A stretch of DNA of 53,575 nt, the filler included, from Bipalium vagum (taxonomy: Eukaryota): NCBI GenBank assembly GCA_037834085.1. It is 3 parts of 3 records of this genome, joined end to end, with 100 filler letters (N's around TTAATTAATTAA, not from the genome) between each part and the next. Parts side by side here need not be neighbours in the genome. Positions count along the whole stretch, not along the records: positions 17,241 to 35,680 come from JBBMKC010029351.1; 2 more parts are not named here. One strand, given 5' to 3'. The notes under the pieces were generated by a model. That model made no database searches. It was not told the DNA's origin and worked only from the letters and a program-made list of their open reading frames with translations. Position numbers and translations under genes: made by a program. This document shows positions 8,251 through 35,780 of the stretch, piece after piece (position 1 is the first letter of the stretch; each line of letters begins with the position of its first letter).

Positions 8251-11200
8251 ATGGAAAGTTCATACGAACGACGACTGTTTGGTTCGTCACCTTTTGTTTC
8301 AGTTAGTATATTGTTAAAACCCAACCTCGAGTTGATTTCTTAACCAACTTTTTAAATTTAATCCTTAAAGCCTATAAAATCTGCACATTCCACTCCAAAC
8401 AAGACCCCCGTTGAGAAAGTGTACCACGACAGATTTATCCCCGTCCGCAATAGCGCCTCTTGGAAAGAGAACAAGCAGCAGGAACATTATCAGATGTTCG
8501 ACATCGAAAACATCCAGAACCAGCCGCTGAACAGTAACGACTGCGACAGCCGATCTGGCAACAATCTCATGGCTGACCTCATTGACAGTGAGCTTGTCAG
8601 TGACACGAACAATTCACACAATTTCGACGCCGAATATAACCCCAATAGCGTCCTTGAAAACCGACGCAATCACAATACCTTCACCGTATTCATTTCAATT
8701 TTTTCTGATTTGATTCTTATTTTGTAATTAATTAATTAATCGATTATTATATCTAGAAAATTTATTCAATTAATTAAATGGATTTTTAATATTTTATCAA
8801 TTTCTTGTTTTTTTAAAAATATCTTCTCAGTTCCGACAAATCAGAGAATCTCCAAGCAAACTGCTCTTTGCCCAAAACACAGAGATTTCGTTTTCGGAAA
8901 ATACGAAACGAATCCTCCAAAGTCCACGACCGGTAATTATGTTGACTTTATTCACAATAATTAATTAATAAATATTTTTAATTTAAAGTCAATAAATCGA
9001 TATATGTGATTAAGTATGATTTTCAAATATTATCAATAATTATTTAATTATTGTATTTCGATCAATATTTCTATGAATTAAATATTGAAAAATATAGCTT
9101 ATTTGTTCGGAATCGATTTGTTCCTATCAATATATCTTTAAACCAAAAAAACCAATATAAAAGAGTCAAATCAATTGAGTAAATTGTCTCAAATGATAAT
9201 TTATTTAAATCAATAATTATAAAATCTATACAAAATAATATCAATTATTGAACATAATTTATTTTACAGTAAAATCAATAATAATTAACATATTCATTTA
9301 TGGAAAAATATGATTGGTAAATTGAATTTTTTTATTGAAATCAATATTTTTTTTAAATAATCGATATTTTTCTTATTTTTAAAATTGTTAAAAACACTTA
9401 AAGATAGACATTTTCCAATTTATTTCAGCAAATCAGAAAAATTCCAAAGTTCCCGTACAAAGTTCTTGATGCTCCCGACTTGCAAGACGATTTCTATCTC
9501 AATTTAGTCGATTGGTCTTCTCAGAACGTTCTGGCGGTTGGATTGGGAACTTGCGTTTATTTGTGGAACGCAGTCTCTTCTGAGGTTGTCTTTGTCTTCT
9601 TTTTTTATCTTAAATTTGTCTCACGTTGTTCTGGTTTCCAGTCGAAATTACGATATAATTTCTTAAATGATAAAATCGACATTATTCTACTATTGATTTT
9701 ATTATACATAAATAAATTAATCCAGTTTTACGCTCCGCGTTTAATGTTTTTTGGTAAATCTTAATTATAAACTAATAATCAGAAATTAATGAAAAAAAAT
9801 TTGATTTATTTCAAAACATAATATTTATGACAATGATTCGCATTGATAAATTGATTATTATAAATATATTTAATCGATAATTATTGGAAATGAATATCTT
9901 TAAATAACTATACATCGTTTTTAAGATTTTTTGGATTTTATGGACGAAAATATTTATTTAATCAACAGAAGTATCGTTGAAATCTGTTGATTGTGATATT
10001 TTTTAAAAACGGAAAAGATTTTTTTCTCATTTTAATTTCTGATTTTCATTTAAAATAATTTTATTAAAATATCAACAAAAATATTGATTTGTTGAATATC
10101 GCTATCATGTTATAAAGTTGATTTTCTTCAGATATCTAAAAATTTTGATCAAAATTGAATTAATTTTTAATTAATTAAATGATAAAATCGATATTATTTG
10201 ATGGTAATTAGAATTTTAAACAAGAGAATTTATGGAAAGATGATTTTAATTATTCCATAAAATGTAAGTCGATAATTTTATTTTAATAATGATTTTTATA
10301 ATAAATCGATCAATTTAATTGGTAATAGTTGAAATTGATCTAATTTTAATGAAAAAATTGTTGTATTTGTTATTTGTTGATTATTATTATTAAAATCGAT
10401 ATTTTGTGCCATAACTGAAATTTTTCTTTCCCTTCTATTCAATAGATCAATCGACTCTGCGATGTGAATTCCGACAACGACACGATAACTTCGGTGGCCT
10501 GGTGCGAGAAGGTCAGTATGTTGTTGATGAGATTAATTTTTGGTCTTGTAAATCATCGATAAGCTATAAAACAATGTTTTACAGGGAACGCGAGTGGCAG
10601 TCGGAACTCATCATGGCAAGGTTCAAATCTGGGACGCTGCCACGGAGCAGCAACTGCAAACACTGGAGGGGCACACAGCGCGAGTGGGAACCCTGGCCTG
10701 GAACGCGGAGCTGTTGGCGTCCGGGAGTCGAGATCGCAACGTGCACTTGCGCGACACGCGGACGTCATCGACGGAGTTTAAGCCGCTCAAGGAGCACCGA
10801 CAAGAAGTATGTGGCCTGAAGTGGTCTCTGGACAAGCAGTACCTGGCGTCGGGAGGCAATGACAATCGATTGGTAGTCTGGAACCTGACCAGTCGTAGTG
10901 GAATGGCGGGGTCGTTTGGGGACAGAGCCATGGGGGCTGGAACCATGAGTAGTGGTACTTCAGGGACGGCGGGTATGGGTTCGGGTGGCGGAGGAGGAGG
11001 ATCTGGTGGAGGAACAGGGGCGGTCGGAGCGGGGTCCGTCTCGACCACCACTGCCGTGAGCTCAAACGCCGGGACCTACTGTCTGAGTCCGTTCATCATC
11101 TATGAGAACCATGCCGCTGCTGTCAAGGCTATCGCGTGGTCGCCGCACCAGCACGGGCTGCTGGCAAGCGGAGGCGGCACGGCAGACCGTTGCATCAAGT

Positions 11201-11758
11201 TCTGGAACATTTTAACGCGACAGGCTGTGCACAGCGTCGACACGGGCAGCCAGGTCTGTAATATCGCCTGGTCACCCCATTCCAACGAGCTCGTGTCAAC
11301 ACATGGCTACTCGCAGAACCAGATAGTCGTTTGGAAATACCCCGGCTGCACACCACTCGCCAAGCTCACCGGTCACTCTTGTCGCGTCCTGTATCTGGCC
11401 CTCAGTCCAGATGGTTCCAATGTCGTCACAGGAGCTGGCGACGAGACCCTCCGCTTCTGGAACGTGTTCGAAAAGCAAAAGTCCACCAAAACCACCACGG
11501 TAAGACCCACATCTAGACTGAATTTCCTTTATGTTTTTCCTTCAATTGATTTTATCAAAACAAAAAAATTCATTTTATTAATATTGATTATTTATTAATT
11601 TTAATGTCAATAAAAAATTATACATTCTTATTAATATTATCAATTATTATGATTTTACTATTATTATATATCCATTCAATTAAAAATAATCAATTGTTAT
11701 ATTTTGTTTTTTTCAGTCTAATCGATCAGCACTCGACCTTTTCAGTGGAATGAGGTGA
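8251..11758 (+). CDS. FZR1: Fizzy-related/Cdh1, APC/C co-activator, 548 aa; exons 8251-8301, 8371-8685, 8831-8932, 9429-9584, 10446-10511, 10585-11499, 11717-11758
   Basis: N-terminal YERRL, C-box [45 protein letters not shown]40 repeats ([72 protein letters not shown]), C-terminal LDLFSGMR*. Six GT-AG introns, all phase 0. [13 protein letters not shown] and RVLYLA favour Fzr over Cdc20. Confidence 0.96.
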
Positions 11759-13999
11759 GAGAAAAACGAGGGAGAGGAGTGCATCTGTGAGTGTCTCTAA
11801 TAATGTCTGTCAGCCCAAAAGAATCGCTGTTTTAGTTGTTTCCCTCTCTCTCCCTTCTCGGTTTTATTTTCTGTGTTTTTGTCAATGTCGGTGTCGGTGT
11901 CGATGTCTTAGACTCCCAGTCCTCAGGGCATCCACTGTCGAGCGGTATCTTCAATCTTTCTGTATGTAAATCAATAATAATCGATAGTCGATATCCAATA
12001 ATGAAAATAATTTTAACGTGCAGTGTCGATCAATTTTGTTATTTCTGTAATTGGGAATCATCAATTATTTTTGTCTTTCTGTGTTCGATGATATTTGAAC
12101 TCTATCTATGTTTTCCATTGGCGGTCGATTTCTTCCTCTTCCGCTATTTATCACGTAAGGCCAATTTCTTTTATCTGTTACACCATCACCGCCAACCATT
12201 GTCGTGTGCCACCACTGGTACCGGCGTGGATTGGTGAGTGAGTGATCGGTGTGATGTAACTCATCAAAAATACTTTTTCTATATGTTGCACTCACTCACA
12301 TTTTATCTTTTAAAATGGATACCGTTGTTAACCAATTTTTTGTTGAATTTTGCGGGATGAAACCTAGTCTTCATCACTGTTGTACTAAGAGGAGATGAGA
12401 CATGATAGTTTGTCTATTTTTCCGACAATTATTGTCTTTAAAAAGTAATATTATTATAAGGTTTAAGAAAGGAAAATCGATTTTGCTCATAATTTTTAAA
12501 ATTTCTTCTCTTGATTTTTTTCTTTATTTTAAAAGTCGTCTCATTGGAAAAAGAGGTATAATTGATTTTATCGATTTTTATCTGTTCGATAAAAAGTGCA
12601 AGGTCAAATTCTTTTTTATGCAATCATTCGGTATTATTATCATTATTACTGTGTAAATTAATTTTCAATTAAACAGTTAAATTTATTTTTTGCGATTTTT
12701 AGTGTCAGTTGTCCAATAAAAATTTATGAAAATTTGTATATCTGACAGTGGTTGCCTATTAAATAGAAATAAGAAACGAAGAGAATTGAATGACAGTAAG
12801 AAGAGTACATTTAAAATCTTAAATATGAATTAACTTAGCATAGTTACTTTAGGATAGGTGATGGTGATGTGGTTACAATAGGAATATTTATTCTTCACGT
12901 TATCATTCATATTAATAAGATAAAGGTGTTAATATAAATTAGTAATTGTGATTATTTAAACATAAAAAAAATATCTAATAATCATTTAAAACCCCTTAGT
13001 TGGATGCGATCTTCATTTGTTCTTATACTGCTCAGGTTATATTAAGGATATCTATCAATTTATATAGTACCACAGTCATCAGTACAGAGTATATAAAAAC
13101 AACCAAAAATGAAATTGGAGCGAAAATTAAATTTTCAAGCTAAAACTTGATTAATAAGTCATTTAAAATCAAAAATCCTAATGAACAATTGAAAAGAACT
13201 TTTGTTTATTTTAACTATTCTTGATTTGATTAAAGAATAAATGATTAAAATATTGAAAAATTTAATTATAGTAAAAGTGTATTAACTAAAGAAATACATG
13301 ATAAAATATTCAGAATTTTAAATTAATGAAAATATTTTGAAGTAAATAATAAATTTAAATATCAGATATTAATACAATGTAATTATGAAAGAGATATTTC
13401 TGGCGAAAAACAAGAATAGCTTTATAATATTTTAAACCAGAAAAATAAGATATACAATTATTAAGATAGCACATTGCTCGTTTTATGCTTTCGACGACTT
13501 TCCTCATTGTCTTCTGAAATGTTCATGGGACTGTCGCTATTCCAAAGTGCGTTCTACTAAAACAATAATATCTTTCCTTAGTAGAAAAATAGTCTTGATC
13601 TTTGATGGAAAAAATAAACTTTGCCCACTAAAAGAGCTGAAAACAAGGACAAAAGTGAATTGATTCAAAGTGACATTAATTTAAAGTAATTTTTCTTTTG
13701 AGATAAATAAATTGATTCGAACAAACCTTTATTTCGGAGTCTCAATTAAATTCAGTTTGGGTAATATTTATTTGAATATTAACAGATTGAATGGTATGAA
13801 AGAAATCTCTCTTGTTCTTGATGCACTACTATCTTCTGTAGATTTATCAATTAAATAAATAAAATTCTTAAGATCATGTTTTTTGATTAAAATGACAATT
13901 TAGTATCATTTTTATCTGGTTAATTACACCAATCATTATTTTTGAACTTTGTATTCAATCAAATATTAATTGTGACCGACATGAAATTATTTCGGTGAT

Positions 14000-14250
14000 C
14001 ATGAGTTAAGGGTTTTTGGCATAGTTGATGACTCCAAGAATGCAAACATATTTTTGAAGTTAGTAGGAGACAGGAAGTGTGTCACCTTATTATCTATTAC
14101 AAAAAGCATCGTTGAGCATGACTCCGTTTATATGAGTTATCAGTGAATAAATTATGTTCATCGAAGTGTAAACCACAAGATGGATTTTGTTTACAAGAAG
14201 ACTGGGGTTCACACATAAAAATTAAGTCGATTTTTGGAAACTGAAGACAG
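14000..14250 (+). mobile_element. Merlin (ISXO2-like DDE) transposase relic
   Basis: VFGIVD...LVGDRKCVTLLSI...HRSVNHKMDFVYKKTGVHT matches Merlin WVFG..DR...TL..I..H.TVNH..FV....G.HT; stops present. Confidence 0.75.
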
Positions 14251-14548
14251 AATATTCAATACAACAATTGCTAATCAATTTTTACTTAATAAATTTGCAG
14301 CAAATTTAGGTTTCTTAATTTTTAAAAATTAAAATAATGTAATAAATATCTTTAAGTTAAGTATCATTTTTGAACTTTTTATTCAGTCAAGTATTAATTT
14401 TGACCGAGTCGGTCAAAAAAAGCAAATGTAATTTTAAAATCTTTAATCAAATGTGTAATTCATTCAAATTTTTTTCACTTGGATCTCAATTTTATTAATT
14501 AATTTCATCACTACTATCATTAATATCATATTAATAATGTAGCCATAA

Positions 14549-14975
14549 TGTAGAGGCCGCTAAGGGCTAAGTCTCTCTAAAGCTCGTAATTTATTAAAAT
14601 CAAAAATTAGAGAACTCCTTAATATTACTATTGAGGGTAAAACGTTTCTGTAGATAGTCGTCACTCAAATACCCACGAACTCCAACTTTGGACCTGTAAT
14701 CGTCAGAATTGGTGATGATATCGACATTTTGTTTTACTTTTTAATATAATTAACATTTAATTTTTGATTGATATATAAATTTATATTAATTATTCAATTA
14801 ATTATTATTCAAGACAATTTATTTTTAGTGTGATCGACTATTGAAACATTTGATTTTGTGATTGAAGACATTTTTATTGATTATTTGAGACATTGTGTTT
14901 ATTATTGTTACTTTGATAATAAAGTGTTGTTCGTAGTTAATTTGATTCATTCATTTTGTACACATATTGACAACA
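14549..14975. repeat. Candidate solo LTR
   Basis: About 430 bp bounded by TGT...ACA, with an internal AATAAA and imperfect 4-bp flanks (ataa/gtaa). No second copy is in the window. Confidence 0.3.
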
Positions 14976-16093
14976 GTAAAGAGGTCAGTAAACTTTTCGA
15001 GCTAAGTGTTACGATAACGTTCATTTTAAAATAATAGCGTAACATTATTTTCATTAGGTCCGGATTAGATGCTTTTAGTAATGCATTATTGATGAGATGA
15101 GCCTAACGAGATGGTAGAAGGGAAATTGATTAGCGAATTTCTTCACCAAATTTTTAAATAAATATCAAGTTTTAAGTATTTTAACACTGATTAACCAAAA
15201 AATTAAATTTTCAAAATATTTTTATTAAATCAAAAGTGATGAAAGTTCGTCTACCGTGTTTTGTCGGAAGAAAGAAGAGAGTATCATCCACCAATATTCT
15301 ACAAAAGTACTTTACGATAATTTAGGTAATAATAATAATATTATTATTATTATTGTTTACATAACACAAATGTATAATATTGAATTCGTTACCAGCCATC
15401 AATTCTGTGTACGATTTGTCTTTATTACATAATTTATCTTTTGAAAAAAATTTTGAACAACATTTTCCTCTTATTTTTATTGAATTTATTTTGACGTTTT
15501 ATTTAATCACTAAAATGTTTTTGGTAGCATTTTAAAATTGATTTTCTACTCTTTCTTTTTTTTTTCTTCTAAGCCAGTCAATTTACTTTTTCCATCATTG
15601 ATCAAAGGTCAATTATGCATCTAATTTCCATTGTTATATCTATTAACAACCCATCTCTATTATAACTTACCTGATAGTTCGCTGAATTACAGCAACAATT
15701 ATGGTATATGATATACAATGGTCCGTGTCGATTCAGAGCGCTATTTTGTAAAAATAGTGCTTGGATTAAGCAGTAGCCAGCACATAGTTTCTGCGTCAAC
15801 ATCACTATTCCGTGAATCATTGAAATCGCACTTCTATAATAATTTGAACAATAAAACTATTTTTAAAGAATTGTTGAATAAAAAATTGTATAACAAAATG
15901 AGGTTTCCTTTAAACTAAAGCATTATTTTACTCTTAACCTCTTCTTCTGTCAAACGCTTACCTTTAATTAGTATTACAGACAATAGGAAAGCTTTTTCTG
16001 ACAGCCCAAATATTTTAATTGATAAAAAAGAATTAACCTTCCTAATCGACTGTAATAAGCTGAATCTGACTCAAAAAATGTAAAGCTCTAGAC

Positions 16094-17060
16094 CAGAGGT
16101 TCTCAAAATGTATTCTCTCGTAGAGCCTTTGGCATGTTTTTCGGTTTTGGGTGGACCCCTTGCTATACACTATAAAAGATTTAAGTTTTAACAGTAATGC
16201 AGTTTCTATAATGTGAAAAGGCAAAACATTTTAATATAATTATTAATTTTATTAATTAAATTTAAATAAAAATATTATGGTATCTGTTACAAAAAAAGAA
16301 ATAAGCAAAAAATTGAATTCATTTATTGGGAAAGATGAACTTGATGATTTAATAAAAAATTATCAAAATTTTTCTTGAATTTACTAGTTAGATTTAATCT
16401 CAAATCTCATTGGTTAATGATGTCCAGTTGTGTCATTTTTGTAATTAAATTTGTCACTGCGCTGAAACCTCTTTCCACTAGTTCTAAAGACGTAAAAGAA
16501 ATTAAAACCTTTCTTGCGGTATTCCATAATTCGGGATAAGTAATAGGTATGTCTTTTTGAAGCCAGAAATGTAGATATCCTTTTCTAAACTGTATCTTAA
16601 GCTCTTCGTTAGTACTTATTCCGATCAATTCTTCGTGTAATGTGACATCCGTTTCTTTTATGTGTTACACTATTATTTTATTATGAACACCGTCGTAAAA
16701 CTTAGCTCGCAAGGTTTACTGACCCTTTCATTTTTGTCAATAAGTGTACGCAAATGAACGAATCAAAACAATTTAGGTTTGCCATCTTCAAGATTACATC
16801 GTTATTAGAAAATAATTGATTACCCTATTTTATATTTTAATTAAGTTGTACTTTATAATAAATTATTATTATTATTTTACTTCTGACTCTTTTGCGGTCT
16901 TTAACATATACTTTTTACAAGGGTTAACAGAAATGTGTCTTTGGCTAACCAAACAAATATCACCATATTGATTGATAATTCATTGCAGTATTATCAGCGT
17001 CAAAAAATCCTCAAATCTCGTTTCAAATCTGAATTGAGTGCTTTCAAATGTTGGACATAA
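16094..17060 (-). mobile_element. hAT (Buster-type) transposon 3' part, interrupted by an insertion at 16663-16955
   Basis: C-terminal dimerisation region EELIGISTNEELKIQFRKGYLHFWLQ..YPELW..A...ERGFSAVTNL...DLRLNL...HQVH. The preceding segment YVQHLKAL..D..RFED...IINQYGD lies at 16958-17059. TIR CAGAGGTTCTCAAA at 16094 with an nnnTAnnn flank (ctctagac). Confidence 0.85.
16663..16955. repeat. LTR-like insertion (TG...CA, ~293 bp) splitting the hAT ORF; an inverted second copy starts at 17064 and runs into the spacer
   Basis: It splits hAT codons YGD|IKETD. The reverse complement of its right end matches 17064-17140 (tgtttggttagccaaagacacat vs tgttgggttaaccaagggcatat; taaagaccgcaaaagagtca vs taaagaccgcaaaagggtca). 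Confidence 0.55.
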
Positions 17061-17140: not shown

Positions 17141-17240
17141 NNNNNNNNNNNNNNNNNNNNNNNNNNNNNNNNNNNNNNNNNNNNTTAATTAATTAANNNN
17201 NNNNNNNNNNNNNNNNNNNNNNNNNNNNNNNNNNNNNNNN
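17141..17240. other. Artificial contig spacer N44-TTAATTAATTAA-N44
   Basis: Exactly 100 nt; the central 12-mer has stops in all six frames; an identical copy is at 35681-35780. Confidence 0.97.
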
Positions 17241-18780: not shown

Positions 18781-21700
18781 TCCAGTTACACTCAATATCA
18801 TCATTGGAGAGAAGGAAATCTACCAAGCAATTCTAAATGCGAAATTTGTAGGAAAGTTTGTTGGTCCAATGAATGTCTCACAGGTTTTCGGTGTGAATGG
18901 TGTGGAATAACTGTAAGTTTTTTCCATGGTATATATTTATATAGTAAATATAAAATATCAACTTTTTATTAATATTCTTAAGAGATACGATTAATTGTCT
19001 TTGAAATGAAGTACGAAAATCGAAATAAAATCCAAAAATTTATTTAAGAGCATGGAAAAATTCTTTTATTAATTTATAAGTCTAATTTACAATAAACAAT
19101 TCTGCCTCAACTTCATGAGAATTCTGGGAGGTACGTGAAACTTAGGATGAAAAATGGTGACAAAAACTGATATAAAATGTGGTATATATATTTTCTATTT
19201 TTTTCCGATAATTAAGAAAGAATTCTGTAGATTTTCTCAAGTTTTTGATCACTCGAATGGATTTTTTGTATTTTAATTATTTTAAAAATAAAAATTTGAT
19301 ATGTAATAATAAATCCAATTAAATTAAAACCATTAAACAACTTACTCTATTTCTTCACTTAATTAACTCTCATTCTAATTAATAATCTTCAAAAAGAAAA
19401 TTCTATTCTTCAATTACTAGATGAATTTTAGATTTCATCATTTAATGGTTTTAAAAATGGTTATAAACAGAGAATATTTTTGTAGAGTCATGCTGGATGT
19501 TTAAAACAAATTCCTGAAGAATGCACGTTTGGTGACTTGAAAGAAATTCTTCTTCCTCCAAGAGCTGTGTGCCTTCCAAGAACTAAGGTATCAATGGAGA
19601 ATATTATAGGTGTACCTCGATCTAATAACTGTGAGACAGTATTATTTTATTTTTAATAAATGATAGACGTAGTAGTTATTTATTTTTGTTATAATTTTTT
19701 AAAATTATCCAAAAACTAACTGATTTACTTTTATTGATTTATATTTAATAATTTGTTATTTTTCTATAACTGAAATAATAAAATTAATATGAAATTTTAT
19801 TCAAATTAATAATGTTTTGATATTACAAGATTAACTTTGAAGTTAATAGTAGGATATTTTCCAATACTAAATTTCAGACTCAAATATTGGAGTTGATTAT
19901 ATTTATAGTGTATGAATGAAGTAGTAATACTCAAATGGAAAGAATGTCTTGAGTACGTTCTAATTTATACTGTGAGAAATGGTAAAATATTTCATAGTTT
20001 GGCAACATCATTTTTTTTGTTGAGACTAACAAAATTGGAGGTCCAGGATCGAAATAGATGAATCTCTGTTGACCAAAATAAATATCGTCGAGGTAGAAAA
20101 TTAAGTGACCAAAAAACGGTTTTTGCTGGCGTTAAATGCCAAAATAAACAGAATTTCTTTTTCAAATTTTGTGGAAAAAAGGAACAAAAAAATTTTATTT
20201 CCAATATATAATACGTACTTTGCCTGGAACGATAATTATCAGTTGTTTATCAGCCTATCATAATTTTTCTGTTACTGCCTCAGATGATGTATACCCACAA
20301 AATATTGGAATTCGCACGCAAAACATCAAGGTACAATGGAAAAATCTCAAACTAAAATAAATGAAGCACCAATTATATTAATATAAATATTATATAAATA
20401 ATATTGAAAATCGTATTGTTGATTTAGATTATCGAAAAATATTTGGAGACAATTGTTTGATAACTTGTAGAGCAATTAAATAAATATTTCTGATTTATAA
20501 TTCTATTGTTCTATTGAAATTATTTTTGATCATCTTAAGTTAATGAAAATAATAATTTGAAACTAAAAAACGAATAATGTATTTTTTAACCGTCATCAAA
20601 AATGAAATATTTATATTTATTTTAAAAGAAAATATAATATTATTATTAATAGATAATATTATCAACAAAAATCTATATTTTAATAAATTTAGCTCGCTTT
20701 GCTCCAGGAACGTGGTCAAGTGATGAAGAAAGTAAAGAAGACAGTTTTGTAGAGAAGAAATCTCCTAAAGAACAGTCGGAAAAAGAGTCATCGGATGGTT
20801 AATTTATGTTTTTAGTTTTTGTTAATTAAATCAGACATTTTTAGTTTTAAAATAATTAGTTGAATTTAATTTAATAAATTTCTTATAATTTAACGTAAAT
20901 AGCATATATAAATTATTAAGTAAACATAAAATTTAGTTAACAGGATTTCTTTATTTTATAGTTTATAAATATATGCTCTAATCTATATCAAAATCTTTTA
21001 ATTAAAATATTTTTTACATTTAAATAAATCTTTTAATTAAAATATTTTTTAAATTTAAATAAATATTTTCTTTTTTGTTGATCAATTAAAAAAATGATTA
21101 CTTTCAGAATACGTAAAGGTATTTGATGGTAATAGTAGTCTAAAGCGCAAAACATATCGCTGCTTCAACTTTAATAAATCAATGTCACCACAAAATGCAG
21201 TTGAACAATGTCTGAAGTCATTTCATTTACCTGGAAAAACTGACGAATATTATATGGTTGAAATAAATGAAAAAGGCTAGCAAGTTTTTATATTATATCG
21301 ATCCATTTACAAAATATTAATATTACACATATCATGATATTACATGTCAAATATTTATAGTATGTATTCAAATCATTGATTGGTTCACTTATCACTTCTA
21401 TATATTGCTATGGGTTGTATCGATGAAAAAGTAACTAGCTAATATTTATTAGGTTGTAACAATTTTTCTTGAATTTAATGTATTATAGTTTTTGTTTAAC
21501 CAGATTATATTTATTTATTAGTAAATACATTTATTTGAAATGTTTTAGTTATTAACAAAATTATAGTAAGTATTTTGATATCATTTAATTTTTTAAAAAA
21601 TCCACAGGTTTGAAATGAAATGCAAATTTGATCAAAAGCACCATTTTCGACACCTATTATTTTATTTTTATCGCGGTAAGAAAGTAGCAGAAGCTGTCTA

Positions 21701-24700
21701 GTAAATTTGCAGTGTGTGGAAAATTCCCCCCCGTAAAAATTCTTTTTGGTAAATTTTGAATAAATATGAATAAATAAATATTTAATAAATAAACCAAATA
21801 TTTATTTAATATATTTTTTATACATGATACATATTGTTAATATGCCTCACAATTGTCTCAAAACACCTATTCTTATGTTGATATTTCCACAAGAAATCGG
21901 TGATATACGAATATAAATGATGTCTATGAGTACCATATCTGGTTCTGTGTTTTTCTAATTTCTGCAAAATTGACTCCATGGTGTTATTGTATGCAAGTCT
22001 TATGGGGTCCACAAAATGCTCACTGTGATTATCAGTTGCATGGGTATATCTTTGATTCAAATCAGAAATCCCTCCTTATATGTCCGGGACCGCACGCGCG
22101 CTACAATGGCAGTATCAACGAGTATTTTCCTAGCTAGAAATAGCCGGGTAATCTGTTAAAACACTGTCGTATCAGGGATAGTGGATTGAAAATTTTCCAC
22201 TTGAACGAGGAACTCCTAGTAAGCGCATGTCACTAGCTTGCGCTGATTACGTCCCTGCCCTTCGCTACTACCGATTATGTGTCATCAGTGCGATCTTCTA
22301 CTGGAATGAAGAAAACTTTGCGGGTTTCTCGCTCTACTCTCCCAAAAAGAGAGTAGAAATAGAAATCTAGACTGTTCTAGATCATTGGCCCAGAAATAAA
22401 TCAAATAAATTAGATTTCAAATCAAATCAATGTTATCATAAAATTATTTAATAAAAAATCAAAAATATTATTCATATTTATTCAAAATTTACTAAAAAAT
22501 TTTTTTGCGCAGGGTATTCTCTAAAAGTGCTCATGTTTTGGCCTCAACAACTGCGAAATATTGGTATAATAAATTTGAAAATGGCACATTTGACCTTCAA
22601 GACAGGCCACATACCGATCATCCATCCAATTTCGATGATCACCAATTGATCAAACTGCTGGAAGTGGACGATCGTCAACATGCAGGGAATTGTCACAAAA
22701 GTTGAATAGCCATCCAATGACAATCTTCCGTCACCTAAAATCAAATAGTTATTGTCAAAAGATTGGTTCTGAGTACCATATGGGCTCAATGAAAAAAATC
22801 AGAAAGTCTTAAAATTGCTGCTCAAAATCTTGCCAAACACCGAGCAGCATGCGGCCAAAAAGAGCATTTTCATCGAATCATAACAGGGGATGAAAAAGGG
22901 TGTCTCCATAAACTTAAAGTATAGGAAGGAATACGCGGCTCCTGGTTGCACAGGTACGTCCAGAATTAAAACAGAATTGCATCTAAAAATGGTGGAATTG
23001 GAATGGTCTGATACACTGGGAAATATTTCCAAACTGCAAGACAAACTTCTATTCATAAATCAATTGCGTCGAGTAAACGATATTATTAAAATGAAATACC
23101 AGTATAAACTAGCCAAAGTGATTCTTCATGATAATGCCAGACCACACACAGCAAATATTACCAAAACCACCCTCTAAGAGCTCGATTGGTCGGTTCTTCT
23201 ACACCTTGCGTATTCTCCGGATCTTGCGCCAATTGATTTTTATCTTTTCCGCTCGCTGTCAAACCAAATGAAATATATTACTTTTCAGAACGAGGATGAT
23301 CTTAAAATTTGGATAAAAAATTTCTTTCAGAGCAAATCTAGCAATTTCTGGAATAAAAGTTTCGACAAATTGATGTTTTAATTACTTCATTTTATATATT
23401 GTAAAAAATCACGAAAAATTATGTTACAACCTAATATATATATCTTCATTTTGATTTTATTTTGATGTCTTAATTTGTTTTTATATAATAAAATAGTAAT
23501 AATAATAATAATGATAATTAATAATAATAAAAATAAGTAATAATAATAAATAATTAATAATAAAAAATTATAATAAAAAGAAAAAAGTAATACAAAAAGA
23601 GATATCCTTTAATAAAATTCTATGAAATTATTTTTGGACTTGACATTCAAATATCTTTACAAAAATCCAACATAAATGGTATACATAAAAGTAAAATTAG
23701 GAATTTAGTCATAATGAAAAATATTTTAACGTCTTAATTTGAATTTGATAGAAAAAGGTTTAGTTTCATTAATTAGTTTTGTACGAATTTTTTACTATAA
23801 ATTTTGATTGTACCCAAGTTTTATATAAAGTGAAATGGAAATTTTATATTTTTCCACTTTGTGGTGCCTAATGATGAATCTATTTTCCAAATTGTATATA
23901 AAGTAGCAGTCAAACTTTTTCTGAGTCCTTAATTGTTCTTTAAATTTCCACAGGAAATAATTATTTTCTTAATTGAATGTTATTGAACATTGTTTAGTTC
24001 TTATTAATGTTTATCGTACTTCCTGAATACATATAATATTTTCTATTATGGTTGTATTGTGTTCTGATTTTTTAAATAAAAATTTAAACTACTCTTAACT
24101 TGGTAAACCATTTTAAAAATATTTTTTCTTTGTTTTTTGAGATGTATTTTCTGTTTCTTAACCTAGGTTATAACTATAGTTTCTTGATCACAGAACTGAA
24201 GAAAAAATTCCCAATTGACTTTTTAATATTAAATTTTGATGACTACTGAACTTAAAAATGATATTAAATAATGTCTGGATTACCTACCTAGTTTTATTAA
24301 ATCTAATTATTATCAAAGTAGTGTAAGAGGTTAAAAATTGATATAGGTGTATACAATTTACCAAGGTTTATTTTATGATTTTAAAGAATTATTTAAAGGT
24401 AATTCAAATAAATTTCAATTGCAAATTTTATAAATCGGAAAAAAACATTTATTCAATCGCACATCGTCCAAGGCGGCACTGGTACTGATCATTAGGTCAA
24501 ATAACATCCTTCAAAAGAATTTATTTTCAGCCCAACAACTGTTCTTTCTGATCAATACACTGAACAATAGTTGTGGACTATGTAAAATTTTTAATATAGA
24601 ACAAGGAAAAGAAATTATATGTCGTTAATGCGGAACACATCATTCAACTTACTGAACCACTGATTTCAATTCCATTTTTCTAACTGCAAAACATAGCCAT

Positions 24701-27700
24701 GTTATCGCATTTATATATAGATCTCTGAAAGATTATGGATGTGATTTTGAAATGGACATTAGTCTAATGGAAATAAAGACGTCTTCGTCGGGACTTGATC
24801 GTACTTCTGAAGTATACATTTCAAATTACATAAAATATCAGAAAATTGATGAAGGATTGAGTTGAAATGTTGAATTGAAGGGACAAGATCAATAATTAAA
24901 ATCTAGAAGATCAATATTGGTTAATGCTATAGAATGCTGTTAATATGATAAATTGAAGATAAAAAACAATGAATTATTAAACGAAATAACGAAGACGAAA
25001 TTAATAGTGTTACAAAATAAATTTTAATTTAATTTTCTTTTCTAATCCAGATGAATTCAAGTAAGTGATCCTTAATATTAAATTTTCTATATCATGGTTT
25101 GATTTTTAAGCTTAAGGGTCCCAAGTACCCTCAATTATATTTGTATGTGGCTATTATTTAAATTTGAATAAATATTATTAGGTCATTAAGTATAAAATGA
25201 TGGATTTTTAATCAACATTTGATTTACAAAATAAGAAGCAAAAATCGATATATTCTAAATATTCACCAAAACTACCAACGCAGTTCTATGGTAAATTGTT
25301 TACTCCAGAAGCGAAGAAGTCTGGCGATAGAATGGCGATAAAATCACGAAAAGCGTTTTCGCAGCCACTTCTTTATTGAATATTTTTCTAACCAAGAAAT
25401 GATCCAAAGGTCCGAAGAAATGATAGGCAGTTGGCGCAATATCCGGTGAATAAAGTGGGTGACAGAGTTTCCAGTTCAAACTCCTACAGTTGGAGTAGCG
25501 TTGCTTTGGCAATAGGTGATTGATCGTTGTCTTGCAAGAGAATTGGTTTGACTCCATTAATCAATCTTAGGTGCTTAATAGCGAGCGACTTCATATTCTT
25601 TAATTAGTTACAGTAAAGTCAGAAATCTCCTTCTCAAAACTTATGAAACAATCGCGCGGTACCTTTCGTTTATTGTCGAAATTGCTCCCAAAGTCATTAT
25701 TCATATTTCAATTTGTTTGCTTTGTAATATTTCTACGATTAAACTCGTATTCAAAAATGACACGATTTTCTGAAATATCCATTGTTTAAAAAAGTTACTC
25801 TAAGACTGCCAATTTATAATATAATCAGATATTTAAATGTGTGCTAAATTAATGTGCGAGTTAAATTATTTAAAATATCAAATATCAAACTTTGGATTTT
25901 GCAAATCCGAAATTTCATTCTTAATGACATAATATTTATACACGCGTTATGGGACCGTTGAATGTATGTGCTTGAAATCATCAAAATAATAATTTTTAAA
26001 AAATTGATGAAAATAATCAATATAAATTTTACTAATTTAAATAAAATTTGTAATATTTTAATTTTTATACTTATATAAAAATGAAATTGTACACGCATAT
26101 ATCACTTGAAAATCGTATAATATATTGATTCTTAAATGTTATAATATGTTGATTCTTAACCATTAATATTTTGATTTTATTAAATGGGATAAAAATATTT
26201 GCAGATGGATCTCAAAGACCTATTACTGATGTTTCGTCATTTAAAAGTCAATTGAAATATGATAGTAAGCGTCCAGCAATAATGTTACGACACAAGGAAA
26301 CTAAAGAATTTAATGTCGAAATACTGAAAGTGTATCCCGGTGATATAACGTAAGAGTATTAAATGAATTTATAATGTTATTTAAGAAATAAGTTTAATGA
26401 GTTAAATACGAAATGGGTATTCTAATTCAGATGCAATTAATATTTTAATCTATGAAAATATTCAAATTTTAAAAAAAAGATTATTTTTTATTATACTCAG
26501 AAATTTTTGTAACTACTATGGTTATAACTTATCAGTAATATCGAATTATGTTTTTACAAGATAACACCCTATAAATAAAAATGGGACTTTTTTAAAAGTT
26601 TAATAAAAAAATAAATGGACCAACATATTAGAAAATGATAAAATGATTAGAATTTGTCATAAAATCCTTTATTTATACAAAAATTGTTTGACCTCATACC
26701 TGGCTATATAGTACAGTCTATAGTAAACCTCTGATGTCTTTTCTTGTATATTCTTCAGATTTTTTTTTAAACAATAAGATATTCATTGTTTCGGTTTCTG
26801 AGAATTTTGGGGTCTTCAATATATTTGGGTCTTATTATATGCAGTTCGCTTCAAATCTGCTCAAAAATCTTAAATTGGCCGCGCTTCTGAAACATTTGTC
26901 GGGTTTTCCAATTTTTCAAAAAAAAATCACATCTTCATCTCTAAGATACTTCTGGATCTCTTTTGGGTAGTGAGATTAAGCTAGATCAGGTCAAAATACG
27001 CAATTATCTCATTTCTTGATGAATGACATTAACAGACGCTTAATGCATTCATTAAAGTATACATTTTGGTTAATTTCCTGCTTTGACGTCACAAAAAATA
27101 TGAATTGAAACACCAAAAGATGAAAAGGATATCCAAACCAATACTTTTCCTTCATATTTGGACTTTAATTGATGGTTAACATGATCCGGAGTGGTCTTCA
27201 CTTCATTCGAAAAATAATGGCGGTTTCCAGCTATTGTACTGTTGGATAACGTAAATTAAGATTAATCATCTAAAATAAAATTTTATAAGTATTGTAAAGA
27301 TTTAGACATTTAGGCCTCATTTGTTTCAACTGTAATGATGATCGTTTTGGTTTTATAATTTTCTTAAAGCAGCGTATCTCTTTATGTTTCTTTAAAATCA
27401 TTTTTGTAACAATTTCAGGATGGATTTCGTCGCAATTTTGGGTTGACAACTACTTCCTTTTTTCTTTTACCGTTTACAGCACATGATATTACTCTGTAAA
27501 TAGTTGATTTTGATATGCCTTCATCACTGAAATGCCTTAAAATAAAGTTTATCTCTAAATGTATGTTTTTATTTAAAACATTTACAATACGACTCTTAGT
27601 CATTTCTGAAAATGTAAATAATTTAATATTACTGATATGTTTATCATACTTATATATATAATTTTAAAGATCTTGATTTGCTTATTAAATTAAAATAAGT

Positions 27701-30700
27701 TATTTAAACAATTTGCATATTACATAAAAGTTTTAAAAATTTCAATTTTTTATTTTTAAAATTTATTTATTTAAATTTATTCTTCATTTTTTATCAATAT
27801 ATAAATATATTTTATCATTCTATGTTTGAAAGTATTTTCTATTGTTTTTAAAAATACAGGGCGTGTAAGGTAATTGAGGACATTGATGTCGAAATCGCTT
27901 GCATGTGTTAACTATGTGGTTCTGCCTAATGTTGGAGTATAGTGGCTATAAGCGAATCAAAAGTATTGTGGAAATGTTCATTGACTTCTTTCGCCCCATA
28001 TACAATAGTCTTTAATAAATATCTTTAAAAATTATAAAATATCTATATAGCTCTATATATTTTCATTAATTGCTTTTTCACTTTAGTTAAATCATTGAAA
28101 TGAATAAATTAGAAATAATTTTCACAAATTATTAGTTATAAAAAAAACTTCGGATTTTAAAGGCGTGTAATATTTATTGTTCACGACTATTAATATTAAT
28201 ATTAGTAATAACGATAACAGGTGATAGATTAATTTTTGAAGATAGATTAATTTTTTAAAATTATTACCTTTAACCATTCATTTTTAAAAACAAGTTTAAT
28301 ATTTCAGGGTTATTATTAATCAATGTATTTATTATAAAGATTATTAATGTATATTAATTTTAGATCTCAAATAAATATTTCCTCGTCTCATTACAAAGAA
28401 ATTCCTATTACAAAAGACACAACTTCACGCGAAGTATTGATAACAGCACTTCGAAAATTTAATTGTGAAGTTAGTTCTTCATTCTGAATCAATTTTTTGT
28501 AAATATTGTTTTACTTTTTATATTATTTTCCAGAAAGGTTTAACAATTTTTTGAGATTAATTATAATTTAAATTTAAATATTTAAAGTTCTGATTTAATC
28601 AGTTAGAATATCCATTATGTTTTGAGTACAACATCATTTAATATTTTAAAAAATTTTCCATTTTGAATTTTCCGAATTGCATCTATAATGAATGAGATTT
28701 TAGAACGAAAGTTAAAAATTATTATAACAACTCCTAGCATTATAAATAAATATACACAAATGATGTTAGATTTTTCAGTCTCCTCTTATTTTATTAGAAT
28801 TATGTGTACAAGAAAATTGCATAAGAATAAACAAAATTAAAAAAATATAATTAAAATATCAATTCATTAAAGAGGAAATTAGTTAAATATTGAAATGTAT
28901 AAAAAATAAAAAATAAAAAATAAAAAAAATATTGAAATGTAATATCTAATATTTTTTGTTGATAGTTAATTAGGTTTTTGTCCATTTCATCATATGGAAA
29001 TTGTAATAATAATTGAATTTGGTAATATGAAAAATTTAAAAACATGAAATCAGTTTTAAAGCTGTTAAAAACGAATCGGACCATTTTAAAAAAAAATTTG
29101 GTAAATCCAGACTTTTGTCACTACTGAACTTTGATTTGTTAGTGTAAATATGAGAAAATTGATTTTTAAAATCCCCTTTTTAATTCAATTTTATACCATT
29201 AATTTATAAAACAAATGATAGTTTTTGTGTAGTCACTAATTTTATGAAGGATGCCAAAAAACTTCAAATTTTTCTGTTGTTTTTTGTTTTATAAATAATA
29301 AAAAGATTTTCTAGTTGTGTACAGTAGGAAAAATTAAACTTTCTGTCCTGTTTAGAGTACTTCTATGTAATATTAGGCTTACCAGGCTTAGATAAACTAT
29401 CATTTAAAATAAGAAATGTATATTAGTATTTCTTTATTGTTTTACATGTTATAACAAAACTTTTGAATAAAGCCTAAAGATCTTTGAAGACAATAAGAAA
29501 TATCGATAAATATTAATAAATAAGTCTTCACTTTCACATTACTTTATGTTAATTATATTAAATCAATACTGTAAAACTTATTTTTAAAATGAAAAAAAAT
29601 CATTTAAGTCTTCTTTATTATTACATTTTATTTCAAAAACCCGTTATTTCTATTCTTTTTAGCAATAATAATAAGTGAGTAAAAATATAAATTAAATGTA
29701 GCGTCTCAACCATTCAAAATTTTATTTGGTGGAGGTCTGTATGGATAAAAATGTTACGGAAAGAGAATTGTCGCACGATGAATGTCCTTGGAATGTTATA
29801 CAAAGACTTAAGCAGGAATCGGTTCGATCTTTACGACTGACTAGATTTTATATCAAAGCTTGTGACGATCCTCACGGTCCAGGGGTAGCAATATTTGTTG
29901 GAAATCTTATAGAGAATCTTGATGAAAAAACATATGAAAGGATGTTAATAGAGAAATTGGGTCCACAAAACAAATGGGATAAGATGGATGTTATATATTA
30001 CGAAAACGGTTGCTTGATATTGTCTTACAGTTCCGGCGAAAAAGCTGAAGTGGCCTATGAAATTTTAAAAGTAACTATATTTACAAAAGTTATGCTGGTC
30101 TAAATTACTCTTTTTCTAATTCAAGGACACAATATTAATGGATAAGCAAATAATGGCTATTCTTTTACCAAGAATAATAACTTCATTGATCCCAGATGAC
30201 ATTCAACCTTTATTGGTATTTGTGAATATTAAATCAGGTGGCGGCCAAGGGAATCACTTGATAACGGCATTTAGAAAACTACTCAATCCTCACCAAGTAG
30301 ATTAATTTCCTGTATACCAAAATATTAATATTTATTAAGTTTTTAAATTACTGAAATAATTTATTAATTTCTATTCTTTATGAAATAAAATATTTGACTA
30401 ATTATTTATTTTAGTAAAAACATGATGTCATTAAAAAATTGAATTTGTATCATATATATTTTTAAAAACAAACATCCCTAAATATTTGACTATAAAAATG
30501 TTTTGTTTAAATAACACATGAAATCAAAATGTCCAATTTTATTCCAAACAAAAATTTTTGCAAGAAATTTTACTTATTGCGAAAAAACGCATCAAAAATA
30601 CATCTTGTTGCTCTTAGAAATTTATGATACACATATTCTTTCTACTACGACATACAAGAATTGGTTATGTCGATTCAAAAATGAAGGAGGACAAAGACCA

Positions 30701-33700
30701 TGGTAAACCAAAAAATTTCTGAAGATTAAAAAAATGGTAATTTTATTACATAAAGACAAATGTTTAACATAATTTGATCTGATCGATGTATTAAATATAT
30801 TTCACATTGTCTGAGAAGAATGGAAAAAATTATTAAGTTAGGAACTTCGATTTAACATAGATTGACAAAAAGAGTAATTGAGGATCGAAATATAATTCAT
30901 CATGTCCCACTTCAAAGACCAGAAAGATAATCTTTTTGAATGGAATGGTTACGGAAATGAAAAATAATATGTATTATGATAGACCTAAACACAAAAAAAA
31001 AGTGGATGAAGTCTGTACATCAACGACAAAACAGAATGTCCATGAATCTAAACTTCTGTATATCTGATGGAATCAAGGTGTTATCTATTATGACGTGCTA
31101 AAACTATTAGAAACCATAACTGGTTATAAAGCCAATTAATCCTTTAGAAACGAGGTCTGATTGTAAAAATAATAAGGGCCGGACATACATGAAAAAATAT
31201 ACAGTAGCGCTCAAAATTTAGTTGACACTGAAAATATGTGCTTTTATGAAGTTTTTTTTATTTTGACTACCCAAACAAATATATAAATATATGCGTTTTC
31301 GTAAAGGTTAATAAAATCAATCAAACGAAAATTGTATTGAAATTGATATTAAATAAATGAAATATTCAAGAAAATATGCAATATTAAGAGTTCATAAATT
31401 AGTTGCCATTGAAAATGTAACACCGAGAAACGTTTAATAATATATTACACGAATTTTAAAAAAATTTATTATTAATACAAGTGATCCAAAATATTTAGTA
31501 GCATAACCATTGGAAGCGATAACAGTTGCACATCTGCGAAGCAGAGTCAACAAGTTTAATCAATTTTTCTAAGGAATTTTAATTCAACTTTCCTGTAAAT
31601 TTTTAAAGAAATCTTGTTTATTGGATATCTTTTTAACGGATGGTACGATCTATCTCCTTCCATAAATGCTCAATCGGATTAAGGTCCGGACTCTGACTAG
31701 GCCACTTCAATAACATGGATTTTGTTACGTTCTAGCGTTTTTTTAATGACGTTGGATATGTGTTTGGGATCGTTATCATGCTGAAATATCCAGCCTTCTT
31801 TCATGGTTTCATGTGCAATCGGAATCATTGTATCCTTAATTATGGTATCATATATTTTCATGTTCATGATGCAGTTTATTTGAATAAGAGGTCCGACTCC
31901 ATCTCTGGAAAAACAATCCCACACCATGACATTTCCTCCACCTTGTTTAATAGTCGGAACCTGATATCTTGAATTAAATCTTTGGTTAACAGATCAACGA
32001 ACATATAGAATACCATCACTAGATAGCAAATTAAATTTGCTTTCGTCACTCCAAAGCATCTTAGACAAATCTTGAATTGTCCAATCTTTATGAAGGCGAA
32101 CAAATTCCAATCGGGTCATTCGATTTTTCTTCGAATCCATTTATTATCTGAAAGATGTTGAAAATGTCCTTGTTAATAAAAAATATTTTATGTCAAAATA
32201 TAAAACGTTTTTAAATAAAACTTTCTTTAGATAAAAAAACATCCGGTTTCATACTTATACAATATTATTTCTTTTATTTTGACAGAATAAAAGAATAATT
32301 TTTTAAAAGTTAATTTATATTTTATTAATTAATGAATCTAAATTGTTTTTAGTTCTTTGGAATAATTTTTAAAATGTATTGTTAAAGTTATTTTTAAAAA
32401 TTAAATGTTTCTTTTAAAATAATAAATCCATTTTCCCTAGTAATCAATGATATTGATAATCTAAAGAACCGTACTAAATAAAAATAATATGAAATATTTT
32501 GTTTTTTATTATTTTATTTTCTTGAAGTTCGACAAAGTTAGAATACATTTATTTTGCAAATTATCAATTTTTACTTATAGGTTTGTAATCAACAAACTTT
32601 TATTGAATCTCTTAAAAGTAGAATTTGAAATGTATTTAAATAAATATTTATCAAATTATGAAAAAAACATTATAGATTAACCGATTCCCCATTTGACATG
32701 TACAAAGGTTTTTTGTATGGAAATATAGCCGGAGATGAAAAAAAGATATATTATTATTACAAAAGTTAGTGGGTAAATCCTGGAGAATTGGGATCATCAC
32801 AGTCAAAAAGAAATATTCATTTTCACAAGGTCCTCCTATGAATATTGTAGCTTGTGCAGAGAGAGTTATACTCTGAAAAAAAACTATTGAGTTATAGGGC
32901 CGCCAAATATACAATTGGACGAGAAATTAATGCCAAACGTCCGTATTCTGCAACTAAAAAGAATAAAGTACTCCAGGATGACAATGTCAGACTATATTTG
33001 GTATTAAAAACGAAAGGATACTTAAATTATAGGTTCTAAGTAAAATTTCCGAGTAGTAATTAGAGTCAAAAAGAACCTATTTTCCATTTTCGTACAAGTT
33101 TTAAATGTCATTTTTGAGATTTGTGGTATTATGTTAGTTTGTAGTGGGTTAGTCTACTAACCAATAATGGACCTCAGCGTTGAAATTTTTTCGATCATTT
33201 CTTCTTGCTGACCTAAACTAAAAATTCTAGCTGAAAATGTTACCAGATACCGAGTAGAATTCGACTACAAGGAATCTTTTCTTTTTCGATTTATCACCAT
33301 AAATGAGAAATGGTGTTTGGGTAAAAATTTGAAAAATGGAAATGAATGGTTTGCTCATATTAAAACATATGTCCAAAATTAAATAGGATTTACATCTTAA
33401 GAAAATGTTGATCTCTGTTTGGCGGAATCTGGTAGATCTCATATACTAGGAAATGATTCAGAAAAACTAGAAAATCGACAAGTACCTATACATGAATTAA
33501 TTTCGTTAAATAAACGAAATTATGAAAAAAGGAAAGATAGTCTGAGCCAGTAAAAGTCATTCTTCTTGAAGATAACTTGAAACCAAACACAGGAAATACC
33601 GCCTAATCTACTCCAAAGAGCTCGATTAGAGGGTTTCAACACCCTTTGCATTCCTGAGAACTTGCAACAACATATTTAAATCTTTTTGCTCGCTTTGTAA

Positions 33701-34436
33701 CCAAATGAAAAGCATTATTTTTGAGGAAAAACCTTTAAAATTATTTGACAAATTTTCTCTGAATTATTGAAAGGCCGTCGACCAACATGGAAATTACTTG
33801 ATTAAATAAGGAGTTGAATTTCTCTTAAACATAAATTATATTAGAAAAAAAAGAATTTTTCAAAATTTCTTCTTATGTATTGCGATGTATTTTATAGGTT
33901 TTTAATTTGGATTTCGGTGGTCCACTTCCTGGTTTATATTGCTTTCGTAATTTGAAATCTTATAAAATACTCGTTTGCGGTGGTGATGGTACAGTTGGGT
34001 GGGCTTTATCTTGTCTTGATAGTACTAGTCAAGATGCTACATGTGATTCTCCACCTATTGCAGTTTTACCAGTTGGTACTGGAAATGATTTGGCACGAGT
34101 GCTTAATTGGGGTGGTGGTTACACAACGGAAGACCCTTATTCGATTTTGAAAGATGTTGTTATAGCTGAAAATGTTAAATTAGATCGGTTAATATTGAAT
34201 TTATCAATTTATGGATTTATGTGTCTGTTAAGTTGGACACTAGTGGTACGTTCAGACGATGGAGAAAAGGATGAGGCTAAATTAGCTTTGCAACTAGAAA
34301 CAAATGTATGTAATACAAATGAAGACAATTCTATTCTTATTATTATGAACAATTACTTCGGAATCGGTATTGATGCTGATCTGGCCTTGGATTTTCATAA
34401 TGCCCGATCTGAAAATCCTGAAAAGTTTAATAGCAG
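18781..34436 (+). CDS. DGKQ: Diacylglycerol kinase theta, partial at both ends; exons 18781-18912, 19486-19630, 20693-20797, 21108-21275, 26205-26349, 28364-28469, 29702-30070, 30126-30296, 33898-34187, 34233-34436
   Basis: Third C1 domain [21 protein letters not shown]...CEWCGITSHAGC, LLPP extension, KVFDGN and KVYPG RA-like segments, AIFVGNL RRM-like segment, catalytic [14 protein letters not shown]...[39 protein letters not shown], accessory [11 protein letters not shown]...KFNSR. Intron phases are consistent throughout, given one GC donor at 21276. Confidence 0.95.
19850..20480 (+). mobile_element. Merlin transposase relic in DGK intron
   Basis: KIGGPG / IEIDESL / KYRRGRK / LPGTIII..LSAY / TQNI.VQW across frameshifts; ends approximate. 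Confidence 0.75.
21718..22522 (-). mobile_element. Internally deleted Merlin element (~805 bp) with ~55-bp TIRs
   Basis: Left end ggaaaattccccccgtaaaaattctttttggtaaattttgaataaatatgaataa matches the reverse complement of the right end (inner ~25 bp identical). ORF 21818-22060 ([12 protein letters not shown]....NTMES......[17 protein letters not shown]) is the Merlin transposase C-terminus. No clear target-site duplication. Confidence 0.85.
22074..22305 (+). pseudogene. 18S rRNA gene fragment (3' major domain to start of helix 44), non-functional
   Basis: Conserved eukaryotic SSU blocks in order: CCTTAtATGTCCGGG.CCGCACGCGCGCTACA, GGGTAATCT, GGGATAG, TGAACGAGGAA.TCCTAGTAAGCGC, GCTGATTACGTCCCTGCCCT, TCGCTACTACCGATT. 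The 16-nt TTGTACACACCGCCCG block is deleted. Confidence 0.92.
25178..25800 (-). mobile_element. mariner relic, internally deleted
   Basis: N-terminus [16 protein letters not shown] at 25782; [16 protein letters not shown] in ORF 25300-25557; TA+ttaggtc terminus at 25176-25184. Confidence 0.8.
26563..27867 (-). mobile_element. IS630-Tc1-mariner DD37E-type transposon relic
   Basis: [19 protein letters not shown]; FILDD*S*FTLS; F*PDLA*SHY...[14 protein letters not shown] with 37 residues between the second D and the mutated E after correcting one homopolymer frameshift. Ends approximate. Confidence 0.72.
30520..31200 (+). mobile_element. mariner relic (mauritiana-like), cut by a Tc1 insertion at 31202
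   Basis: [21 protein letters not shown] and later GVIYYDVLK-like segments in broken frames. Confidence 0.7.
31202..32140 (-). mobile_element. Tc1 (DD34E) transposon relic
   Basis: [45 protein letters not shown]; TA+CAGT terminus at 31200-31205. Confidence 0.88.
32690..33040 (+). mobile_element. mariner relic
   Basis: IAGDEK, WVNPGE and LQDDNVR (degenerate HDNARPH) in order. Confidence 0.65.
33260..33810 (+). mobile_element. mariner relic (catalytic and C-terminal part)
   Basis: [13 protein letters not shown] ... LLEDNLKP ... VDQHGNYLI* in broken frames; resembles the 21449-23434 family. Confidence 0.65.
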
Positions 34437-34979
34437 GTAAATTAAAATTCCTTTTTAATTTTATTCAAATATAATTGTTCATTATATATGTGAAAATTTA
34501 ATTAAAAATCTTAACAAAGTAAATGTAATAATATGTTGCGTGAAGGGAAGTTTTTTGTAATTTTGTTTAAAATATTTAAATATTTGAAATAAGAGTTATA
34601 AATAAAATAAGAAACTTTAACAGGAAAATTATTGCTCGATGATTTACTATGATCTTAAAATATCACTTACACCGAAGAATTTTCCAGATTGACTTCATTT
34701 AGTTTTTCAAAATGGGACACGGATTTCATTAGATGTTGTCTGTCAACATCCAATTTAGTCACAAATATTGATTGAAATGATTGTAGAGATCATATATAAC
34801 ATCGTGAAATTGAAATATTCAGTGAAGTAATAGGAGTAATAAGATTTAATAAGTAAAAAGATAATAATAAGTAAAAAGATGTTGTTTTTATAAGATGCAA
34901 CATTATCAGAATTTACTGGTTTCACTAATAATTAATTTTATTTATCTATTCAATTTATAAATCATTAATATATTATTTT

Positions 34980-35680: not shown

Positions 35681-35780
35681 NNNNNNNNNNNNNNNNNNNN
35701 NNNNNNNNNNNNNNNNNNNNNNNNTTAATTAATTAANNNNNNNNNNNNNNNNNNNNNNNNNNNNNNNNNNNNNNNNNNNN
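35681..35780. other. Artificial contig spacer N44-TTAATTAATTAA-N44
   Basis: Identical to 17141-17240. Confidence 0.97.

Follow-up and report, generated by a model that had tools for sequence, protein, structure and literature searches.

An 18S rDNA fragment inside a decayed Merlin transposon of Bipalium vagum: probable filler DNA from break repair

How does a piece of nuclear 18S rDNA come to lie inside a DNA transposon, and does it travel with its carrier? The question is raised by a 53.6-kb stretch of DNA from Bipalium vagum (hereafter the window). A preliminary description of this DNA had offered two answers, namely Pack-type capture of rDNA by a non-autonomous Merlin that then moved, or an 18S-derived retroposon or repair patch that landed in a Merlin. 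Our analysis bears out the nesting order (DGK intron > mariner > Merlin > 18S), and the 18S piece is probably filler DNA, copied or captured during double-strand break repair of a decayed Merlin, which would make the unit a probably single-copy Pack-TIR with no predicted function [Table 1].

Table 1. Features of the nest and of the neighbouring DGK exons, with positions in the window
Feature	Positions	Strand	Basis
DGK exon 5' of the nest, RA domain	21107-21277	+	tblastn of P0277 covers 21107-21229; Pfam RA E 1.4e-4; frame open to 21277
Next DGK exon found 3' of the nest	29717-30124	+	tblastn of P0277 E 1e-26; intervening exons may have been missed
Decayed mariner with TIRs, TA on each side (21447-21448, 23435-23436)	21449-23434	+	TIR alignment; Mos1 match; motifs
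Mariner ORF 5' piece, first HTH half, two stops	21615-21717	+	HTH_48 1-21 at E 0.0018, under the cut-off
Mariner ORF 3' piece, second HTH half and DD34D region, stops and frameshifts	22523-23378	+	HTH_48 32-49; Mos1
Merlin 3' TIR, starts GG	21718-21773	-	TIR alignment
Merlin transposase residues about 217-302 and stop codon, catalytic Glu kept	21818-22075	-	68 bits on HMM; relatives
18S rDNA piece, triclad-type	22074-22276	+	Rfam; L001 2475-2694 (gene nt ~1445-1664); Schmidtea probes
Merlin transposase residues 170-193 and one base of the next codon	22277-22349	-	HMM 14.1 bits
Second deletion junction, residues ~105-169 lost including the first catalytic Asp	22333-22382		Twin hairpins
Merlin transposase residues about 73-104, a weak match interrupted by stops; N-terminus missing	22372-22460	-	HMM 3.8 bits
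Merlin 5' TIR, starts AG instead of GG	22468-22522	-	TIR alignment

A Merlin relic nested in a mariner and a DGK intron

DGK exons on the plus strand span 18781 to 34437 and flank the nest on both sides, which places it within a DGK intron, as had been proposed; by its strand, the 18S piece is also sense to the DGK pre-mRNA, as described earlier. At the end of the RA exon, a stop directly follows AAAG/GC (21277-21280), which suggests that the donor site of this exon is GC, or else a GT that lies earlier. An Atlas look-up of the DGK exon returned RRM look-alikes alone, all <0.9. Translations of the mariner, which measures 1,181 nt without the Merlin, carry the motifs ITGDEKG, HDNARPH, and YSPDLAPID, and its 3' part matches Mos1 (E 4e-11). 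The HTH_48 domain is divided by the Merlin unit (positions 1-21 lie to its left and 32-49 to its right, each below the Pfam cut-off), in agreement with the earlier view that the unit splits the mariner ORF inside its HTH region. By our own count, joining the two HTH halves leaves about +1 nt.

The Merlin unit occupies 21718-22522 (805 bp) and is indeed bounded by the two TIRs of ~55 bp previously seen; they align over 47 nt at 85% identity, with 1 mismatch in the inner 31 nt, and their alignment score of 33 compares with a background maximum of 18 in 3,550 windows. The Merlin superfamily (Feschotte 2004, summarised in PMC8101967) has DDE_Tnp_IS1595 as its diagnostic domain, TIRs of 24-462 bp, 5'-GG-3' ends, and a TSD of 8-9 bp. 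Here, the TIR length (47-55 bp) lies within that range and the terminal GG is present at 21718, while the opposite end is AG, one change in a decayed copy. No TSD of 8-9 bp was found at the Merlin ends, the best of 98 end combinations being 5/8 and off register. The join of the HTH halves with only about one extra nucleotide is indicative that the duplication was lost or never made, and that the flank is ~7 nt shorter than an 8-bp duplication would leave it. The unit is hence called a Merlin-derived relic and not an intact insertion.

A HMMER scan returned 230 relatives of the Merlin C-terminus at E<=1e-3, which upholds the placement of the transposase C-terminus on the minus strand (22075-21818). 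DDE_Tnp_IS1595 (PF12762) was above cut-off in 12/12 relatives scanned. The Merlin piece of the window was by itself without a Pfam match, and a word-index search with it gave no match, whereas the full HMMER scan found relatives. With an HMM built from 23 full-length relatives among the 150 matches listed, the score of residues 170-193 was reached by none of 500 shuffles (maximum 0.7), and the weak score of residues ~73-104 was likewise reached by 0/500. By homology, the Merlin has lost three coding stretches, i.e., the N-terminus, residues ~105-169, and residues ~194-216; its catalytic triad is not intact, with D150 and D211 inside deletions and E248 kept. Judged by its DDE_Tnp_IS1595-type transposase, the unit is a member of the Merlin superfamily, and it is a relic that lacks both a TSD and a complete triad. 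It resembles other Merlins in transposase type, in TIR length, in the imperfection of its TIRs, and in one GG end (PMC8101967). Unlike the superfamily, it has three coding deletions with 2/3 of the catalytic residues gone, AG at its second end, no 8-9 bp TSD, and an rDNA cargo (PMC8101967); the available text of that paper does not mention rDNA.

Several other elements and genes occur in the window. A second and more decayed Merlin transposase relic lies at 14003-14221 (+; HMM positions 167-246, 29.6 bits), near a 45-nt direct repeat (13935-13979 / 14363-14407); its DNA was too diverged to serve as a same-family reference and it was rejected as such. A possible third Merlin relic at about 20048-20221 (+) shows an IEIDES-like first-Asp motif across two frames, with weak scores. 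A mariner relic at 33420-33725 is 69% identical to 22990-23288. Labels given by eye include Tc1/mariner-like frames (31697-31993 and 42599-43378), a reverse-transcriptase-like relic (3081-3847), and BACE-like aspartic protease exons (38450-46496, -). An inverted repeat of ~105 nt at 82% (14941-15044 / 16663-16767) possibly represents DNA transposon ends. The fizzy-related (Cdh1) exon at 10570-11598 (+) carries a long Gly/Ser-rich insertion inside a WD40 repeat; the Logan protein P0003 is 98.7% identical to it in conserved columns, with a much shorter insertion.

Extent, junctions, and source of the 18S piece

The 18S piece matches Rfam SSU_rRNA_eukarya beyond chance (157 bits, E 2.4e-45) and is the sole Rfam match at gathering score in the window, where Rfam shows no rDNA array. 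An extension of the Rfam match to 22000-22070 was rejected as a low-confidence alignment over transposase sequence. The preliminary description had ~230 nt of 18S starting about 15 nt after the transposase C-terminus, in place of the 5' part of the transposase. The piece is in fact 203 nt, begins right at the transposase codon 22073-22075 with no gap, and replaces ~23 codons (~68 nt) in the middle of the transposase, including the second catalytic Asp; residues 170-193 and ~73-104 lie beyond it, and what had been taken for a tail of the 18S is transposase residues 170-193. The residues of the Merlin run in order on the two sides of the insert, with 193 ending at 22278 and ~217 resuming at 22075. 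By hand count, 34/150 tblastn queries stop exactly at 22278, the queries being all 150 listed relatives, many of which are fragments that do not reach the far-side part. The span at the 18S measures 31-35 residues in 87/95 references against 10 kept in the window, so that 21-25 residues are missing.

At the left junction, CC at 22074-22075 is common to 18S and Merlin, and the right junction is blunt; the lost Merlin bases and the microhomology were deduced from conserved residues and not from an intact family copy. Of a full element, the lost ~68 nt would make up no more than ~6%, and the target sequence at the insert is deleted, not duplicated. Neither 18S junction shows a poly(A) or A-tail, a duplication, or retroelement sequence. 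One sequencing run, X1, gave a word match of 0.56 of 223 words, which is silent on the junctions; no RNA run matched.

A single metagenome contig, L001, matched a 23-nt motif of the piece, and its 18S is complete. The piece is 91.5% identical to this 18S, with 187 of its 203 nt the same, and at most 79.3% identical to 29 other distinct 18S stretches, these being the ones with sufficient upstream sequence among 42 loci. Two Schmidtea mediterranea tiling probes (PMC11275719 supplement, as available) match by eye at 62/69 and 63/69 (~90%), and a third Schmidtea probe (in the available PMC6884822 supplement) has 32 nt exact up to the deletion, also by eye. On account of the matches to L001 and the Schmidtea probes, the piece is classed by its sequence as triclad-type. 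Schmidtea itself has two 18S types ~8% apart, of which type I alone was reported as predominantly transcribed (PMC6884822). An exact eukaryotic 18S motif also occurs in 42 contigs (L002-L043) of bacterial and archaeal assemblies, with ~180 estimated collection-wide; these contigs are eukaryotic contamination of those assemblies. The viral contigs held neither the 18S motif, nor a junction-like motif, nor a relative of P0122, the closest relative of our Merlin.

From within the piece, between two GCCC repeats at 22261/22262, 16 nt of the most conserved (invariant) 3' motif have been deleted. At 8/133 sites conserved in the panel and L001 the piece differs, or at 7 after excluding one difference that is natural in a Schmidtea probe. 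With its 203 nt, its deleted invariant motif, and these changed sites, it falls short of a functional 18S gene, and its sequence marks it as a pseudogene fragment. The motif removed by the deletion is what we take to be the V9 forward-primer site; with the shortness of the piece, this makes it unlikely that the fragment confounds 18S barcoding, as had been feared. The 18S decay is about 5% (95% CI 2-11%). In the Merlin, 6/33 conserved residues changed, or ~8% per base (simulated CI ~3-16%), the 33 being a hand subset where P0122 keeps the consensus. As the two intervals overlap, patching before and after the last jump of the Merlin are indistinguishable. The rDNA is likely the host's own.

Break repair and comparison with known systems

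A second deletion junction lies ~70 nt away from the 18S patch. Its filler of about 22 nt (22350-22371) forms two perfect hairpins with the flanks, with arms of 9 bp (22333-22357) and 7 bp (22365-22382). The pair is unique in the 53.6 kb and arose in 0/2,000 dinucleotide shuffles, in a test chosen after the feature was seen. Snap-back SD-MMEJ products are described with junction-spanning inverted repeats and complex inserts of nearby sequence (PMC2943611), and where P elements have excised, pol theta takes part in end joining once gap repair has been aborted (PMC2895639). The twin hairpins suggest that this junction was sealed by snap-back, polymerase-theta-type joining, and breaks in the Merlin lineage would have gone through error-prone repair on two or more occasions, or on a single one that involved several switches. 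The inverted repeats of the filler with both flanks and the repeated short motifs are like those of snap-back products (PMC2943611, PMC2895639). Unlike those systems, which involve induced Drosophila breaks and local templates, here the junction is a fossil, the enzyme is deduced, and the 18S insert came from a distant template (PMC2943611, PMC2895639). Double-strand breaks in yeast do capture distant nuclear fragments with 0-4 nt of microhomology, and inserts of rDNA and Ty are mentioned there as a category that one of the figures sets aside (PMC11724301). The 18S patch is like these templated insertions in its distant nuclear source and short microhomology; unlike it, the yeast insertions are experimental, mutant-enriched, and not fixed in a transposon (PMC11724301).

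The class to which the locus comes closest is that of the Pack-TIRs, of which Tan et al. 2021 reported 370 in 100 animal genomes (PMC8277862). Single-copy members have a median microhomology of 2 bp and a median lost TE piece of 4.6%, and the source of their filler mostly lies on the chromosome of the element, in many cases no more than 15 kb away (PMC8277862). Our unit shares with them a non-TE sequence flanked in order by one decayed TIR element, and a small TE loss (<=~6%) with 2-bp microhomology at one end (PMC8277862). It works like a gap-filling Pack-TIR, an assignment that rests on these two structural features. It departs from the surveyed cases in its Merlin carrier, its rDNA cargo, and the lack of a nearby source in the window (PMC8277862). 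In the survey as available, the word Merlin is absent from the main text and appears in the supplements as a column head only (PMC8277862). The survey pipeline required a unique source match (PMC8277862), a filter that would drop rDNA, so that the absence of rDNA from the survey says little. In the open-licence literature, we found no report of rDNA or 18S inside a Merlin or other TIR DNA transposon, nor such an rDNA-carrying case in the literature on 18S-derived SINEs and planarian Merlin.

The history of the locus begins with a mariner sitting in the DGK intron and a Merlin sitting in the HTH region of that mariner, where it presumably arrived by transposition with no TSD surviving. The Merlin has lost the three coding stretches named above, the middle deletion presumably being sealed by snap-back end joining of the polymerase-theta type, to which the twin hairpins point. 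At the third break, one end may have paired with rDNA through the CC microhomology, some 220 nt of 18S would have been brought in by copying or ligation, and the remaining end would have received a blunt join. A slip between the two GCCC repeats would have removed the 16 nt, then or later, the whole decaying neutrally. The repair-patch option of the preliminary description thus fits the anatomy (colinear Merlin, 2-nt microhomology, no duplication or tail). Against a single-copy reading, both TIRs survive, as in non-autonomous families; against a patch made in place, the overlapping decay means that it could predate the last jump; and against gap filling, fillers in the survey are mostly local, with no rDNA array in the window. 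The missing TSD also counts against this explanation.

Alternative origins and their meaning

An unlikely alternative, which is nevertheless the strongest competitor, is that patching took place in another, donor copy of the Merlin and that the 805-bp element was moved by an active Merlin transposase, the unit being one copy of a non-autonomous Pack-Merlin with a fixed 18S cassette that spread through the planarian genome as a multicopy family scattering 18S. Both TIRs are kept, with the well-matched inner 31 nt, the 18S and Merlin decay overlap, and multicopy Pack-TIRs do exist, with 3/23 in frog, where elements are active (PMC8277862). Nevertheless, the 53.6-kb window holds no second copy and the unit has no TSD, and multicopy cases number only 4 in the whole survey, or 1.4% (PMC8277862). 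Of the Pack-type capture followed by movement that had been proposed, the capture names the right class, while the movement is unsupported, given this survey rate (PMC8277862). If true, nuclear SSU rDNA would have been scattered in an animal genome by cut-and-paste transposition; a multicopy family would provide a route for rDNA pseudogene pieces to spread in animal genomes and would make it possible to ask if the silencing of a carrier family changes when its cargo is rRNA-like. The retroposon option is not supported. An 18S-headed SINE with a specific tail that landed in the Merlin deserves next to no credence: beyond the presence of an rRNA piece nothing speaks for it, its tail would be transposase residues 170-193, it has neither a TSD nor a poly(A) or A-rich end, and ~68 nt of target are lost instead of duplicated.

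The same one-off repair could also have used rRNA or cDNA as its template, leaving a reverse-transcribed patch without endonuclease or poly(A), which we consider improbable. In its favour, rRNA is the most abundant RNA, and endonuclease-independent insertions come without TSD and tail. Breaks can also capture cDNA (PMC11724301). Neither junction, however, shows poly(A), duplication, or retroelement sequence, and the neighbouring twin-hairpin junction points to DNA-templated synthesis. The chance that the assembly joined rDNA reads into a repeat is very small. Although assembly is difficult for rDNA and for transposon relics, the 7-8 conserved-site substitutions and the 16-nt deletion of an invariant motif are unlike functional rDNA, and this decay, together with the transposase resuming in order beyond the 18S, argues against a chimera; the nearest N runs begin at 17141-17197 and 35681-35737. 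Equally remote is the scenario of a host that is not a triclad, into which a Merlin brought planarian rDNA by horizontal transfer. Host placement is weak: in a tree of 45 rows (the window and 44 of 120 matches), which has no named triclad or nematode and carries a long-branch warning, the fizzy-related protein groups with a fluke at 95/85, and rare shared states number 6 with the fluke versus 5 with the next, a long-branch row. Yet the existing signal points, weakly, to flatworms, and the 26% GC and the abundant mariner and Merlin relics fit planarians. Merlin elements are moreover known from Schmidtea (PMC8101967), and capture of own rDNA takes fewer steps. That a planarian captured its own rDNA is the simplest reading of the sequences, with which the weak host signal agrees.

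In essence, 18S inside this Merlin is most likely a known kind of accident and not a new mobile element. If the 18S piece is filler from break repair, one dead transposon would preserve a fossil of error-prone repair, in which a distant-template patch and a snap-back junction lie 70 nt apart. The range of Pack-TIR capture would also come to include a Merlin as carrier and rDNA as cargo, a pairing which unique-source filters would miss.
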